From NCBI GenBank assembly GCA_951406725.2, contig OX597818.1:137454001-137518000 (forward strand): DNA of 64,000 nt, given 5' to 3'. The notes beneath the pieces were generated by a model that searched no databases, had not been told where the DNA came from, and worked only from the letters and a program-made list of their open reading frames with translations. Position numbers and translations under genes: made by a program. Every line of letters starts with the position of its first letter. Within the stretch, counting starts at the first letter, position 1. This document shows positions 3,137 to 59,648 of this stretch, in pieces. Source of the stretch: Octopus vulgaris. Lineage: Eukaryota.

Positions 3137-5373
3137 TATTTCAAAACATTTGCCATAAAGGCAGTACACAGATTAAGTTAGCTTTGCGGGCTGGACGAGG
3201 ACATTAATGAGGTGAATGATAATGAAAGAAAGATGATAAGGATGGGAGAAGACAGAAAGCGCCCGCCGACTTTTGCTTCTCTAAAACATTGTTCTTTTTA
3301 AAAAAGATTAACACAAAACGAGGTATTAAACCTCTTACAATTTTTCCAATTTTGGGCTTAGCAGTCCATTATTAATACAAAACGAGGTATTAATTCTCTT
3401 ACAATTTTTCAATTTTTGGACTTAAGTCCATTACTAATAATACATATCGTCCTCGAAATAGCTTGTGCCCGCGCCCTCCACCATCAACCACGCCTCCCTC
3501 AGAACGTAGTCAAGTTCCGAGTTCGCGTCGCCCGGGACCAAGTTATAGTCTTCATTGAGCTCCTTTAGCCCTAGCGTCACGTCGAACGCCACGGCCTCCA
3601 CAGCTACCTGCGGAGGCCATTCGGGGTCCTGTGTGAAGGCTAAAGGTGCTCCCTTGTAGTGCTCTTCCATCACTTTTTCAATTTCTCCTCCTCTATAGAA
3701 GAGGACCAATACATTCAGTTCTTTCGTTGGCGGCACAGTTTCCGCCAACGGTATTCCTTCTCTTGTCGGTGGCACAACCCCAACCGACGTAGTTCCGCGA
3801 CATTCCGGTGCCACACTGACAGCCGGCAACGTCCCGTTTTTCTTCCTCTTTTTCTTTTTTTTTCCCTTTTCAACTGAGGGAGGGTGCGTCTCCTCCGTGG
3901 CTGGAAGATTCGCCCTCCTCTCCTCATCCCTATTATCCTTTGGTGAGCACCCATTGTTGCTCACCTTCCTCTTTCGGCCTCTGCTTGAGGAGTCCTCTGC
4001 TTTCTCGGCCGTTATCGTTCCCTCTTCTAGAGGGGTTTTACTTAACTGTTCCGGGATCCTATTTTGTTCCCGAGGACAGTTCTTCTTTATGTGGCCGGAC
4101 TCCAAGCACCGATGACACTTAGGGGGGCGACCCTCAAGCATCACCGGGTACCTGCACCCGGCCATTTTCAAAAAATCTGGAAAAACCAGATTGGCTGATT
4201 GGGTCCACAGGGTCAAAACTGCTTTCGAGCCAACCCAAGCAGCCGCAGGAAGAACTTTTACATTGAGGAGCTTAGTTTCGCTGTCACCCAGACCCCGGCG
4301 GATAGTCTCCTCTATCCACTCGGGTTCTATGTCGGGTGGCAGTCCGCAGATCCAAGCTTTCATTAATTTCTTTTTTTTGTAAGTGGGCAGGAATAAGATT
4401 TCCTTACCCTCCAAGGGTTCGCTAGCAAATTTGCAAGCCTCTTCAGGGGTGTCAAACAGCAACCACACCGTTCCATATTTGACACCCCTGGAAATGAATT
4501 TAATTGTTGGCAAATACTCCTCCAACTCCTCCTCAATTGCCGTCTTTTCGAATAGGGCGATGGTGTCAAGTGCCTTGGAGTAGGTTCTCAACACCACCGT
4601 CCTATCTTCACGGTCCTTCAACCACTTTTTGGGTGGTATGATTTCCCACTCCAAAACTTTGTTATTTTTCATTGCCATGTTTTTAAAAAATATATTCAAA
4701 TTAGACTCAAAAGCAGGAAGAAAAAAGTTCAAAAGTCTAAATAAATTTGATAGATTTTTGAAAAAACAAAAAGGAGAAAGCACAACAGAAGGGAAGAAAT
4801 TAACGGAAAGTCGCAATAAAGAAAAAACAAAAAGGGGGGGGGGGGTAAATGAAGTTCAAAAGAAAGTTAATAAACAGAAAAAACACAGCAAAAATATTCT
4901 GCGGTACTCCCGGCCTGGGTTGAACCTGGAACGCCGCAACTGCAACACAACCTCCACAAAAATGGGTCCGAAAGGTAATCCAATAGTGGCTTATTTTTAT
5001 ACTTTTCTTGCGAAGTACTCTGACAAGGGAATAAATTCAGCAAACTCAAACACAGCACTGGTTACTGCCAACGGTAATTTTAACAGTAACTGTATTGAAT
5101 CCTGAGTATACGCCCCTCCACTGTTTTTTTTTTTTTTTTTTTTTCAATGAACACAAAAACGGCAGCCGCCTAGCGCAGGCGAAATTGTCTCAGAGTTGGA
5201 CACAACCTACTGAAATAATAATTGGCACGCAATAAATTATGCCCAACTCACAATAAACAAAATCACTTACCTCGACAACTTTCCGTTTTTGGTATTTTTT
5301 CTTTAGTTGGAAGGAGTTTGTTACTCACGTCCACTCTAGCTCAACAGGAAGCAACCGACTAACTGCGCATGTG
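3137..5373 (-). mobile_element. ORF1-only non-LTR retroelement (Tx1/L1-type, HAL1-like architecture)
   Basis: Perfect 17-bp TSD TGGTTAGCAAGCTACTT (3120-3136 and 5374-5390). One long ORF, ~695-nt 5' region, ~300-nt 3' UTR, AATAAA straddling the 3' junction, and no room for an ORF2. Confidence 0.85.
3434..4678 (-). CDS. Tx1/L1-type ORF1 (gag-like) nucleic-acid-binding protein, 414 aa from the first ATG
   Basis: Uninterrupted ORF. RRM-like segments (KAWICGLPPDIEPEWI), FPDFLKMAGCRYPVMLEGRPPK followed by the CCHC knuckle CHRCLESGHIKKNC, basic patches RGRKRK and KGKKKKKRKK, and an acidic C-terminal segment. Confidence 0.85.
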   Translation of the reverse strand: MAMKNNKVLEWEIIPPKKWLKDREDRTVVLRTYSKALDTIALFEKTAIEEELEEYLPTIKFISRGVKYGTVWLLFDTPEEACKFASEPLEGKEILFLPTYKKKKLMKAWICGLPPDIEPEWIEETIRRGLGDSETKLLNVKVLPAAAWVGSKAVLTLWTQSANLVFPDFLKMAGCRYPVMLEGRPPKCHRCLESGHIKKNCPREQNRIPEQLSKTPLEEGTITAEKAEDSSSRGRKRKVSNNGCSPKDNRDEERRANLPATEETHPPSVEKGKKKKKRKKNGTLPAVSVAPECRGTTSVGVVPPTREGIPLAETVPPTKELNVLVLFYRGGEIEKVMEEHYKGAPLAFTQDPEWPPQVAVEAVAFDVTLGLKELNEDYNLVPGDANSELDYVLREAWLMVEGAGTSYFEDDMYY

Positions 5374-12473: not shown

Positions 12474-12799
12474 CATCATCATCATCATCATTATGTTAGT
12501 GTGTGTGTGTGTGCGTATGTGTGTACATCAAAATAAGTGGCGGGATGTCAACTAGTAATGCAATACGACCATTTCAAGCGGCCTGTAATCATTACATCAG
12601 TGTAAATACAGCACTAGCTTCAGCTGCGTGAAATATGGATTTTCAACAGACAAACTATATGAATATAATTTTTCTTAAAATATTTTAACAGAGCAAGACA
12701 ATAATACCAGACTGACTTGGTCCTTCAACTTAAGTACTTAATTCAACTGAATAGTAATTACTTTATATATATAAACCTCGCTAACATAAATATTTCAAT

Positions 12800-12870
12800 T
12801 AACCTGAAGATTTACTGTAACCATAACTCGAATTATTACGAATTGTACAGCCATGAAACGATCGTAGTGT
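12800..12870 (+). ncRNA. Type I hammerhead ribozyme motif, weak stem I
   Basis: CTGAAGA (12804-12810), stem II CTGTA/TACAG, then GAAA-CGATCG-TA (12855-12866). Confidence 0.55.
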
Positions 12871-12998
12871 TTTACTCTTTATCTTTTATTAAACTTTTAA
12901 TACTTTTGATATATATTTAAAATAATATTAATTAATTAATTTTATGTATTGGCTTACGTTTTTTCATTATTTGATTTGCCTAATAGTGGTTTTATCTC

Positions 12999-13576
12999 TA
13001 AACGTTTTTAAATTTTCACCTAATTTCTGAATTACTACTGCTTGGCGGTTTGAGTTCTGGCTGCTCTCTCTGGTGGACGAATGGCCTGTTAATGCCATTC
13101 CTAAATTGTTATATTTATATATTTTAGTCTTTGACTATTTTCTCTTTTCCACTAGGCCGCTGGTAGCGATAAATTTCTATTGAATTTTTTGCTACCCTAA
13201 ATTGATTAATTGATAATTTTCTGACTAATTCTGAGATTGAATCAGCAGTTTATATTTACTGCTGATGGATTGGCGCGAATACGTTGGTCTTGAAAATTTT
13301 AAGACAGATATTCCGGAGGCATTGATACAGACGCCTCGTGTATATTTGTCTCTCCCAGGTTTTTTACTGATGAAGTGTGACCTATGGTAGATTAGCTTAA
13401 TTTAATTTAATTAAGCTAGTTTATCATTAAAAACACAGAAACGATGCATCGTCTAAAATATGAATTAGGGTAAACGTTTTTAAATTTTCACCTAATTTCG
13501 GAATTACTACTGCTTGGCGGTTTGAGTTCTGGCTGCTCTCTCTGGTGGACGAATGGCCTGTTAAGGCCATTCCTAA

Positions 13577-13586
<10 letters not shown>
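12999..13586 (+). mobile_element. ~472-bp hammerhead-bearing unit with terminal direct repeat (Penelope pLTR or retrozyme-like)
   Basis: 12999-13114 is repeated at 13471-13586. The unit is homologous to 58721-59566 and abuts (TA)n. Confidence 0.8.
13362..13458 (+). ncRNA. Type I hammerhead ribozyme, intact core
   Basis: TTTTA-CTGATGA (13367-13373), long stem II, GAAA (13438-13441)-CGATGCATCG-TC^TAAAA. Predicted GUC cleavage after 13453. Confidence 0.85.
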
Positions 13587-13628
<42 letters not shown>

Positions 13629-13633
<5 letters not shown>

Positions 13634-13766
13634 TAGATAAACTTAGATATGTTTCGACCAAAGATTGGTCTAGGCCATGTCCAACTTAATAGCACCACCT
13701 GATAGGATTATTCGAATCCTGTTTAAGTCAAGTTTTGTTCAAGTAGTGAGTTCTTGTTGGGTGAGT

Positions 13767-13768
<2 letters not shown>
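13629..13768 (-). mobile_element. 3' end of a CR1-group LINE in (TA)n
   Basis: Encodes ...NKNSLLEQ, shares 3' UTR CAGGTGGT.CTATTAAGTT.GACATGGCCT with 18290-18643, and has a (TATCTAAGTT)2 tail. Confidence 0.65.
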
Positions 13769-13801
<33 letters not shown>

Positions 13802-25694: not shown

Positions 25695-26453
25695 GATCTG
25701 AAACTTTGGAGGAGGAGACGAGTCGATTACATCGACCCCAATGTTTCACTGGCACTTATTTTATTGACCCCAAAAGGATGAAGAGCAAAGTCAACTTCGG
25801 AGGTATGTGAACTCAAAAGCTGAAGACGGACGAAATATCACTGAGGATTCCGTCCGACGAGCTAACTATTTTTCTTCTACTACGGTGCAAGGCTTGAAAT
25901 TTGGCGAGAAGGGACTAGTCGATTATATCGACCCCGGTGTATCAATGGTAGTTATTTCGTCGACTCCGAAAGGATGAAAGCAAAGTCAACAGGGGTGGAA
26001 TTTGAACTCATAATGTAGCGACGGGTGAAATACCTATTTCTTTACTACCCACAAGGGGCTAAACACAGAGAGAGGACAAACAAGGACAGACAAACGGATT
26101 AAGTCGATTATATCGATCCCAGTGCGTAACTGGTACTTATTTAATCGACCCCGAAAGGATGAAAGGCAAAGTCAACAGGGGTGGAATTTGAACTCATAAT
26201 GTAGCGACGGGTGAAATACCTATTTCTTTATAACCTACAAGGGGCTAAACACAGAGAGGACAAACAAGGACAGACAAACGGATTAAGTCGATTATATCGA
26301 TCCCAGTGCGTAACTGGTACTTATTTGATCGACCCCGAAGGGATGAAAGGCAAAGTCGACCTCGGCGGAATTTGAACTCGGAACGTAGCGGCAGACGAAA
26401 TACTGCTAAGCATTTCGCCCGGCGTGCTAACTTTTCTGCCAGCTTACCGCCTT
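25695..26453 (-). mobile_element. SINE family C cluster with partial tandem array (186-bp period)
   Basis: Full head at 26453. Junctions AAAGAAATAGG|TATTTC at ~26220 and ~26033. Confidence 0.85.
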
Positions 26454-47070: not shown

Positions 47071-47750
47071 AAGGCGGCGAGCTGGTAGAATCATCAACGC
47101 ACCGTGAGGAATGCTTAAACAGAATTTCTTTAGTCTCTGCATTTTGAGTTCAATTTCCACCGAGGTCGACTTGCAATTTTATTCTTTCAGGGTCGATAAA
47201 TCGAGTACCAGTTGGACATTTGGGTCGATGAAATCGATTTACCTTCTCCACGAAATTGCTGGCCTTGACAATATTAAGGCAGCGAACTGGCAGAATCGTT
47301 AGCACGCCGAGCGAAATGCTTACCGATATTTCGTCTGCCGTTACGTTGTGAGTTCAAATTCCGCCGAGGTCGACTTTGCCTTTCATCCTTTCGGGGTCGA
47401 TAAATTAAGTACCAGTTACGCACTGGGGTCGATGTAATAGACTTAATCCGCCTGTCTTTGTTTGTCTCCTCTGTGTTTAGCCCCTTGTGGGTACTAAAGA
47501 AATAGGTATTTTATCAGTCTTTATGTTCTGAGTTCAAATTCCGCCGAGATCGACTTTGCCTTTCATCCTTTCGGGGTCGATAAATTAAGTACCTGTTACG
47601 GACTGGGGTCGATATAATCGACTTAATCCGTCTGTCTTTGTTTGTCTCCTCTGTGTTTAGCCCCTTGTGGGTACTAAAGAAATAGGTATTTTATCAGTCT
47701 TTACGTTCTGAGTTCAAATTCTGCCGAGATCGACTTTACCTTTCATCATT
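47071..47750 (+). mobile_element. SINE family C cluster: diverged copy, full copy and 180-bp tandem extensions
   Basis: Heads at 47071 and 47276. Junctions AAAGAAATAGG|TATTT at 47506 and 47686. Confidence 0.88.
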
Positions 47751-48191
47751 TTTGGTGTACCATTGAGCATTTTCCAAAGTGACTGGCTTTGGAATTAATT
47801 AATGTAATATGAAGGAGTCAAACGAAAGTTATTCCCGTGGAACAGTCCATAAAAAACACTGCAATATTTAGCTCGAAAGATAGCGTTATGACTTCAAAGC
47901 TGGTCGTAGCTGATCTGATTTGTGTCTCAATGTTTGGAGACACATGTTGTATATTACGATCAATTCTATCCGTTGTCATGAAATAACTGATGTTGTGTCT
48001 ATATCTTTCTAATATTATTTTAATAATAACCTATGCATACTTATATTAGTTGTTAATCAATTAATTCTACTTAAACTTCCTGAAGCACACATTCAACCAC
48101 ATACGTGTGTATATATAATGAGAATAGTATAGTATACATACATATATATATATACATAATAGACATATTTGCGTGTATGAATATATGTAAA

Positions 48192-58668: not shown

Positions 58669-58725
<57 letters not shown>

Positions 58726-58942
58726 TAAATATAAGGGTAGCAAAAAATTCTAGAAATATTTCTCCGCTACCAGCGGTCCAGTGAGAAAGAAAAGATAATC
58801 AAATACTATATAATATACATTCAAAAATATAAGGAATGGCCATAATAGGACATTCGACTCACTAGAGAGAGCAGCCAAACTCAAACCGCTAATAGTTATA
58901 ATTCTGAAATTGAAAGAGAAATAAAAACGTTTACCCTTTCAT

Positions 58943-59035
58943 CTCTGGACTATGCATAGTTTCGGCAAACTTTAGTAAACAAATTAATTAAATTAAATTA
59001 AATGTATTTACAACTGGCGTACCTCGTCAGCAGAG
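58943..59035 (-). ncRNA. Type I hammerhead ribozyme
   Basis: CTCTG-CTGACGA-extended stem II-GAAA-CTATGCATAG-TC^CAGAG. Confidence 0.85.
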
Positions 59036-59344
59036 AAGCCAAGGACGAACATATATCCACGAGGCGATGGTAAGGAAGCCTCAAGTCTATATGCTATAAA
59101 TTTTCAAAATTTACCGCAATCGCGCGGTCTACTCAGCAGCAAATATGAACTGCTGATTTAATTTCAAAATTAGCCAAAAAATCATTAATTAATAAATATA
59201 AGGGTAGCAAAATCTTCTAGAAAAAATTCTCCGCTACCTGCGGTCCAGTGGGAGAGAAAAGCGCGGTAGATTTTGAAAATTTATAGCATATAGACTTGAG
59301 GCTTCCTTACCATCGCATCGTGGATATATGTTCGTCCTTGGCTT

Positions 59345-59437
59345 CCCTGCTGACGAGGTACGTCAGTTGTAAATAAATTAAATTTAATCTAATTAATTTG
59401 TTTACTACAGTTTGCTGAAACTATGCATAGTCCAGAG
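59345..59437 (+). ncRNA. Type I hammerhead ribozyme
   Basis: CCCTG-CTGACGA (59350-59356)...GAAA (59417-59420)-CTATGCATAG-TC^CAGAG. Confidence 0.82.
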
Positions 59438-59557
59438 ATGAAAGGGTAAACGTTTTTATTTCTCTTTCAATTTCAGAATTATAACTATTAGCGGTTTGAG
59501 TTTGGCTGCTCTCTCTAGTGAGTCGAATGTTCTATTATGGCCATTCCTTATTTTTGA

Positions 59558-59648
<91 letters not shown>

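Follow-up and report, generated by a model that had tools for sequence, protein, structure and literature searches.

The window that we analyzed, a microsatellite-rich stretch of 64,000 nt from the 2.8-Gb genome of Octopus vulgaris, carries a repeat near 13 kb whose first 22 bases lie at 12999 and recur at 13471. The initial annotation described this as a non-coding unit with a 472-bp period, and we agree: the unit is 34% GC, its longest stop-free stretch is 58 aa, and successive units overlap over 124 nt with 96.8% identity. The features of this locus are listed below, where positions with a plus sign are counted after the predicted ribozyme cut, and E1 and E2 are the two sites at which copies of the family end.

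12999..13581, plus strand: subfamily A insertion, single arm, 1.24 units of 472 nt
13079-13110: internal copy of the E1 hairpin and end
13162..13210, plus strand: E2 hairpin, then the AT-rich E2 end (about +228), putative second RT start, internal here
13362..13458, plus strand: predicted type I hammerhead ribozyme
13362-13366 with 13454-13458, plus strand: stem I, TTTTA/TAAAA
13367-13373, plus strand: hammerhead core CTGATGA
13374-13437, plus strand: long stem II, 64 nt, its basal pair an A·A mismatch
13401-13411, plus strand: stem II apical loop motif TTTAATTTAAT, kept in most subfamilies
13438-13441, plus strand: GAAA
13442-13451, plus strand: stem III, palindromic, CGATGCATCG
After C13453, plus strand: predicted cleavage site
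13551..13581, plus strand: E1 hairpin, then the AT-rich E1 end (about +128), putative first RT start
13582..13629, no strand: (TA)24 microsatellite adjoining the insertion's 3' end

The insertion begins 18 nt past the predicted cut of an upstream unit that is absent (+18) and ends at E1, and both of its flanks are other repeats. The sequence at 12770-12998 (plus strand) belongs to a separate repeat family, whose hammerhead-like core consists of CTGAAGA, found at 12804, and GAAA-CGATCG-TA, found at 12855, and whose stem I is weak. Elsewhere, copies of that family have two arms that terminate in TA repeats. The 13-kb unit, which is joined to the 3' end of this repeat in place of its tail, probably inserted there. 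Right behind the TA tract, at 13630-13770, lies a different repeat that has deep contig coverage in sequencing runs and copies in several of the fetched loci.

The hammerhead had been called intact. Its core is complete, but at the foot of stem II nearly all subfamily A copies among the matches listed have an A·A mismatch (or one extra A per side); in subfamily B this pair is G-C. Stem II folds at -26.5 kcal/mol on the plus strand (z -7.5) and at -12.8 kcal/mol on the minus strand; it is far stabler on the plus strand, as expected from the G-U pairs that had been proposed for this strand, the predicted RNA strand. The fold z values are -4.2 for the E1 hairpin, -5.0 for the E2 hairpin, and -4.8 for the whole unit. 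The hammerhead fold lies above the minimum-energy fold by 2.3 kcal/mol at 13 kb and by 2.1 kcal/mol at 59 kb. Rfam returned no matches at gathering score over the whole window.

A diverged homolog of the unit lies near 59 kb, with 73.7% identity to the 13-kb unit over 471 nt. As described in the initial annotation, it has a period of 467 nt and keeps the hammerhead core while both outer stems are exchanged, to CTCTG/CAGAG in stem I and CTATGCATAG in stem III of the minus-strand hammerhead. The description fits the minus arm; however, the locus consists of two arms placed head to head, running from 59260 to 58718 on the minus strand and from 59263 to 59574 on the plus strand:

58718..59260, minus strand: subfamily B minus arm, 543 nt, 467-nt period, E2 end in (TA)n
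59030-59024, minus strand: minus-arm hammerhead core, with the predicted cut after 58948
59263..59574, plus strand: subfamily B inverted plus arm, 312 nt, E1 end in (TA)n
59350-59356, plus strand: plus-arm hammerhead core, with the predicted cut after 59432

The plus-arm hammerhead has one stem I mismatch, C·A. The 13-kb and 59-kb units represent two subfamilies of the same non-coding family. At neither locus in the window does one strand hold two hammerheads, and thus neither locus alone is able to release a unit-length RNA.

We compared 21 hammerhead variants, one per sequence signature, from six subfamilies. Among the 315 cells of the predicted structure, 95.9% were paired (98% in stem I and 100% in stem III); none of 500 shuffles equaled this value, and slid structures reached 33-47%. 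Both sides had changed in five of the six stem I pairs and in two stem III pairs, and stem III was self-complementary in every variant. These double-sided changes support the selection on ribozyme structure that had been suggested from the two loci of the window. The first stem II pair was unpaired in 10 of the 21 variants, and measures of pair count and pair type were not above shuffles (67/500 and 422/500, respectively). Thus, the covariation supports the structure and falls short of a formal test, the rows being related. A consensus fold of 11 monomers carried double-sided changes in 20 of its 100 pairs and contained a conserved domain of ~225 nt that encloses two hairpins, with an AT-rich stretch after each. 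RNAalifold misplaced the subfamily C hammerhead in this whole-unit alignment, and its pairs there were left out. The loop motif TTTAATTTAAT stays constant while the surrounding stem covaries. We identified no pairing partner for it; it may act in protein binding or in a tertiary contact.

The family is large. An exact motif near the 3' end has 5,458 matches in the genome and none in the control, the hammerhead pattern has 2,707 (2 for the reversed pattern), and the hammerhead pattern with the stem II loop motif has 3,668 (3 in the control). Because the genome matches far exceed those of the reversed-pattern controls, the hammerhead is not a product of chance. Narrower versions of the 3'-end motif gave 289 A-type and 584 B-type matches. 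The copies are dispersed over many contigs and fall into six subfamilies, four of which (A, B, C, and E) provided natural monomers of 467-495 nt; stem II is 55-68 nt long across the family. Contigs from the sequencing run of a second organism also cover the unit. Four presumed-RNA runs gave contigs over the unit, with one depth value per contig, and these are silent on ends, strand, level, and circles. Among the first-look candidates of two DNA searches, 2,158 in one and 2,242 in the other, we scored 39 and 40, respectively.

To describe how copies end, we used 122 insertions: 42 consecutive ones on one contig, C1 (two of them fetched separately), and 80 more, taken as the following 40 entries from each of the B-type and A-type lists. 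Loci chosen for length or for an intact hammerhead were not pooled with these, and L210 and L276, seemingly one insertion duplicated with its flanks, were both counted. A 3' end was scored as E1 when it fell +120 to +150 after the predicted cut and as E2 when it fell at +215 to +250. Among 195 arms, 103 ended at E1, 84 at E2, and 8 elsewhere, so that 187 of the 195 ended at fixed sites. E1 and E2 are ~100 nt apart, each behind its own hairpin, and (TA)4 adjoins 174 of the 187 ends. We observed 70 head-to-head pairs, comprising 63 of E1 with E2, 1 of E2 with E2 (L291), none of E1 with E1, and 6 with one non-standard end. Thus, each arm used its own site in 63 of the 64 classifiable two-armed insertions (24/24 in the first set and 39/40 in the second). 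At least two tandem hammerheads, from which release of a unit-length RNA is possible, were present in 20 of the 122 insertions, and the longest arrays held nine pure units.

These patterns amount to a Penelope-type footprint: targets in TA repeats, 5' truncation, partial tandem copies, an inverted 5' copy, and a tail at one end. This footprint had been overlooked in the initial annotation and points to the likely mover. By analogy, E1 and E2 may be internal RT start sites of the kind seen in PMC11167929. The same data do not bear out the argument for a circle that was drawn from the different points of the unit at which the two loci of the window begin. These starts reflect variable 5' truncation, and the 3' ends fall at two fixed sites; a linear tandem transcript would give variable 5' starts and fixed 3' ends too, so they are no proof of a circle.

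We consider it probable that the family is a non-coding, high-copy non-LTR retrozyme that is copied into TA microsatellites in trans by a Penelope-like RT/GIY-YIG protein. In such a pathway, multi-unit arrays would be transcribed on the hammerhead strand, and adjacent hammerheads, probably dimerized via their palindromic stem III, are predicted to cut. The resulting unit-length RNA would likely be ligated to a circle. Judging from the ends seen here and from PMC11167929, the Penelope protein may bind the conserved folded domain of ~225 nt and cut both strands of AT-rich DNA, and cDNA may start at the two fixed internal sites, E1 and E2, one per DNA end. The two cDNAs would stop at variable points and join head to head, which would give the tandem-plus-inverted insertions whose footprint we observe; in single-armed copies, such as the one at 13 kb, the second arm is missing. 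Long arms would come from repeated passage around a single circle, and in a minority of cases the arm would stop at the 5' end of the cut RNA.

We compared 101 units from 29 multi-unit insertions. Units differed at 1.4-1.5 sites within an insertion, at 1.7 between opposite arms, and at 13-27 between insertions. Twenty private variants were each fixed in every unit of the one insertion that carried them, and only one site varied within arrays, in two of them. This homogeneity fits rolling on one circle. Periodic variants occurred in four arrays (L145, L270, L194, and L009), the arms of L191 differed at 3 sites, and in subfamily A the smallest distance between insertions was 0, with identical units in different insertions. 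Homogeneous linear donors or later block duplications may be an alternative source of the arrays.

The 5' ends of 169 arms were analyzed after omission of arms with non-standard 3' ends (8/195) and of arms starting past +79. In the interval from +1 to +30, 33 arms stopped in 5,999 nt at risk (5.5 per 1,000 nt), a rate 2.5 times that at all other positions and the highest of 16 windows. The first set gave a ratio of 2.9 and the second one of 2.2 (p 0.002), and by subfamily the ratio was 2.0 for A-type (p 0.07), 2.0 for B-type (p 0.03), and 3.6 for C (p 0.004). The +1 to +30 window was fixed after inspection of the data, with junctions checked by eye; it replaced a sharp cluster at +7 to +19, which held 13 of 67 arms in the first set and only 6 of 128 in the second. 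The excess could also be explained by microhomology in T runs or by RT stalling at the fold. The first predicted cut was read through in 121 of 145 arms, and therefore the usual template was uncut or religated.

This read-through counts in favor of a reading that we regard as rather unlikely, in which the unit is a non-autonomous Penelope passenger copied from linear tandem read-through RNA, the hammerhead is slow or protein dependent, no circle is formed, and arrays grow through template jumping and later unequal exchange. The arms that cross the cut site, the periodic variants inside four arrays, and the non-canonical base of stem II would all be in keeping with a linear template, and uncut RNA was the dominant substrate in vitro according to PMC11167929. 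However, stems I and III covary in all subfamilies, and there is a surplus of 5' ends right behind the cut. In addition, private variants are fixed in all units of both arms, whereas mosaic donors would yield mosaics.

A Penelope ORF was joined to the unit in 0 of the 122 insertions, with flanks of a median of 1,585 nt and a minimum of 365 nt on the shorter side. This result favors an independent retrozyme over an ordinary pLTR, as had been proposed. Penelope protein hits were present in the flanks of nine of the 122 loci, and they lay downstream, in the wrong orientation, or behind microsatellites; two of the nine loci were read base by base, and the rest were judged by position, strand, and flank sequence. 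In L216, the unit precedes an RT frame by 1.5 kb, but another repeat and a TA tract lie in between, and the unit is a separate element with its own inverted end. The candidate link in L265 was likewise rejected as a separate element.

The genome contains young Penelope-like families with open RT-EN frames of 781 and 753 aa. The 781-aa frame matches the GIY-YIG profile (PF01541) and scores 28.9 bits for RVT_1, slightly below the cut-off. One autonomous Penelope-like copy has the same arm pattern as the unit, with a tail on a single arm. The unit profile found no match in the 3' regions of 66 Penelope-like loci of about six families, a small part of the candidates; unit hits in L063, L091, L306, and L307, considered as helper homology, were separate unit insertions. 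The Penelope-like helper is thus deduced solely from the insertion footprint. This lack of a helper match in the 66 loci counts against the retrozyme reading, as do the unpaired stem II base in 10 of 21 variants, the read-through in 121 of 145 arms, the single E2+E2 insertion, the cleavage of only 1 of 9 retrozyme dimers tested elsewhere (10.64898/2026.07.22.740005), and the in vitro insertion of ribozyme mutants (PMC11167929).

The units could instead derive from an autonomous Penelope-like element outside our sample, as its ordinary pseudo-LTRs or as truncated 3' ends. Every Penelope footprint is present, Xenopus retrozymes are homologous to pLTRs according to 10.64898/2026.07.22.740005, and we scored only 150 of 6,136 and 150 of 12,795 places with candidate endonuclease or RT sequences. 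We nevertheless find this explanation improbable, given that the ORF is joined in none of the 122 insertions, the nine flank hits are all separate, arrays reach nine pure units, and the 66 Penelope-like loci show no homology. Satellite DNA spread at the DNA level, or a structural RNA domesticated by the host, with a relic hammerhead, would account for tandem arrays and for the block duplications in some of them. This explanation is very improbable and largely refuted by the end patterns: the copies are scattered over numerous contigs, their 3' ends are fixed and their 5' ends variable, their arms stand head to head, and they target TA repeats; moreover, the 13-kb copy is flanked by other repeats.

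If the family is a retrozyme moved in trans, it might record Penelope retrotransposition in vivo. We put forward tentatively, as a possibility short of probable, that a dimeric RT-endonuclease uses a ribozyme-made circle of 470 nt, takes one hairpin-marked site per DNA end, writes as many as nine identical units by rolling around the circle, and at times runs off a ribozyme-cut 5' end. If this is true, the 225-nt domain from E1 to E2 would suffice, without an ORF, as a transferable signal for Penelope-mediated insertion, and stem II, long and with a conserved loop, would be a new support for a hammerhead that lacks the usual closing pair.

Elements of this kind are known. Animal non-LTR retrozymes have been defined, with circles in coral, mussel, and axolotl and with Penelope-like elements proposed as movers (Cervera & de la Pena 2020, PMC7229834); mussel retrozymes have about 5,000 copies and units of 350-390 nt (PMC7229834). 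The octopus family resembles them in its non-coding, low-GC tandem units with a type I hammerhead each, its thousands of copies, and the presence of Penelope-like elements. Its unit of 467-495 nt is longer than the 170-400 nt of PMC7229834 and within the 51-972 nt of 10.64898/2026.07.22.740005. In contrast to those retrozymes, stem II measures 55-68 nt, its loop is conserved, and the pair at its base is loose, and cleavage and circles are predictions here. Retrozymes have been tied to pLTRs in Xenopus by a study that also proposes Penelope-like elements as movers and saw cleavage in one of nine tested dimers (Li, Clavereau & Pollet 2026, 10.64898/2026.07.22.740005); the octopus unit, in contrast, is without homology to the sampled pLTRs. 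Two fixed ends and head-to-head arms do not appear in the retrozyme descriptions within the parts of PMC7229834 and 10.64898/2026.07.22.740005 used for comparison.

Penelope-like elements form partial tandems with an inverted 5'-truncated copy, are biased toward microsatellites, and have a tail of 30-40 bp, often at one end only (PMC8557442). The hammerheads of pLTRs have a palindromic helix III, an extra base after A9, and low activity, and the G10.1-C11.1 pair of stem II is highly conserved in Penelope hammerheads (PMC4209133). The octopus unit shares with EN+ Penelope-like elements and pLTRs the partial tandems, the inverted 5'-truncated copy, the tail at one end, the (TA)n targets, and the type I hammerhead with a palindromic helix III (PMC4209133, PMC8557442). 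Unlike EN+ elements, it has no ORF, a tail of ~100 rather than 30-40 nt, and arms of up to nine whole units. Chlamys MRC1 is alike in that non-autonomous Penelope passengers form multicopy head-to-tail insertions; the Chlamys non-autonomous elements, unlike the octopus unit, generally have an autonomous-like 3' end and mostly no canonical hammerhead (PMC8557442).

The closest mechanistic parallel is with PAc, Anolis Poseidon, in which the tail in vitro lies between two internal RT start sites, both strands are cut and extended, and targets are AT rich (Frangieh et al. 2024, PMC11167929). Both systems would have two internal RT starts downstream of the hammerhead, AT-rich targets, and extension of both strands. 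In PAc, the start sites are separated by 30-40 nt and lie within the start of the ORF, close to an AC-rich stem-loop (PMC11167929), whereas the putative sites here are in a non-coding unit, 100 nt apart, with a hairpin before each and a near-strict allocation of one per arm. PAc ribozyme mutants inserted in vitro all the same (PMC11167929).

In the literature searched, which consisted of main texts with few subscription papers, we found neither a cephalopod retrozyme nor a one-site-per-arm rule, nor anything bearing on a mismatch at the 10.1-11.1 pair. Penelope-driven mobilization of animal retrozymes has been proposed before, from co-occurrence and phylogeny; what this family would add is a mechanistic insertion footprint, as read from the genome sequence. 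The papers compared here leave unsettled how Penelope-like elements produce insertions that are tandem and inverted, and which function their hammerheads have. In the octopus family, insertions number in the thousands, are short, young, and free of ORFs, and keep almost strictly to one site per arm; the arrays are homogeneous, and ends are measurably enriched at the predicted cut. These patterns give direct predictions for a PAc-type in vitro system and a minimal substrate.

Several further repeats were observed. Hammerhead-like motifs whose cores depart from the standard occur in the autonomous Penelope-like families (L306 at ~3620-3580 on the minus strand, L102 at 4765-4800, and L092 downstream of the ORF), with U3-A8 in two of them and a C at position 4 in another; the non-coding families, in contrast, retain the canonical core. 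U3-A8 is a hammerhead core variant on record (PMC4209133). In L102 (181-3882), of the 781-aa family, a 479-aa frame lies upstream of the RT frame and overlaps it in another reading frame. The 1-kb 3' region of L102 contains repeated TGACGT and ATTGG boxes, which we take to resemble an internal Pol II promoter. Unrelated hammerhead families with a palindromic stem III (CGATCG or CTCGAG) are present in L069 (120-570), L064, L094, and L104, those of L069 and L094 as head-to-head pairs. Within the window, a 473-aa open frame at 3434-4855 (minus strand) has a CCHC zinc-knuckle-like motif and presumably resembles a LINE ORF1. At 25917-26390 and 47341-47751, the window contains a SINE-like repeat in tandem copies of 180-184 nt that is frequent in the fetched loci.
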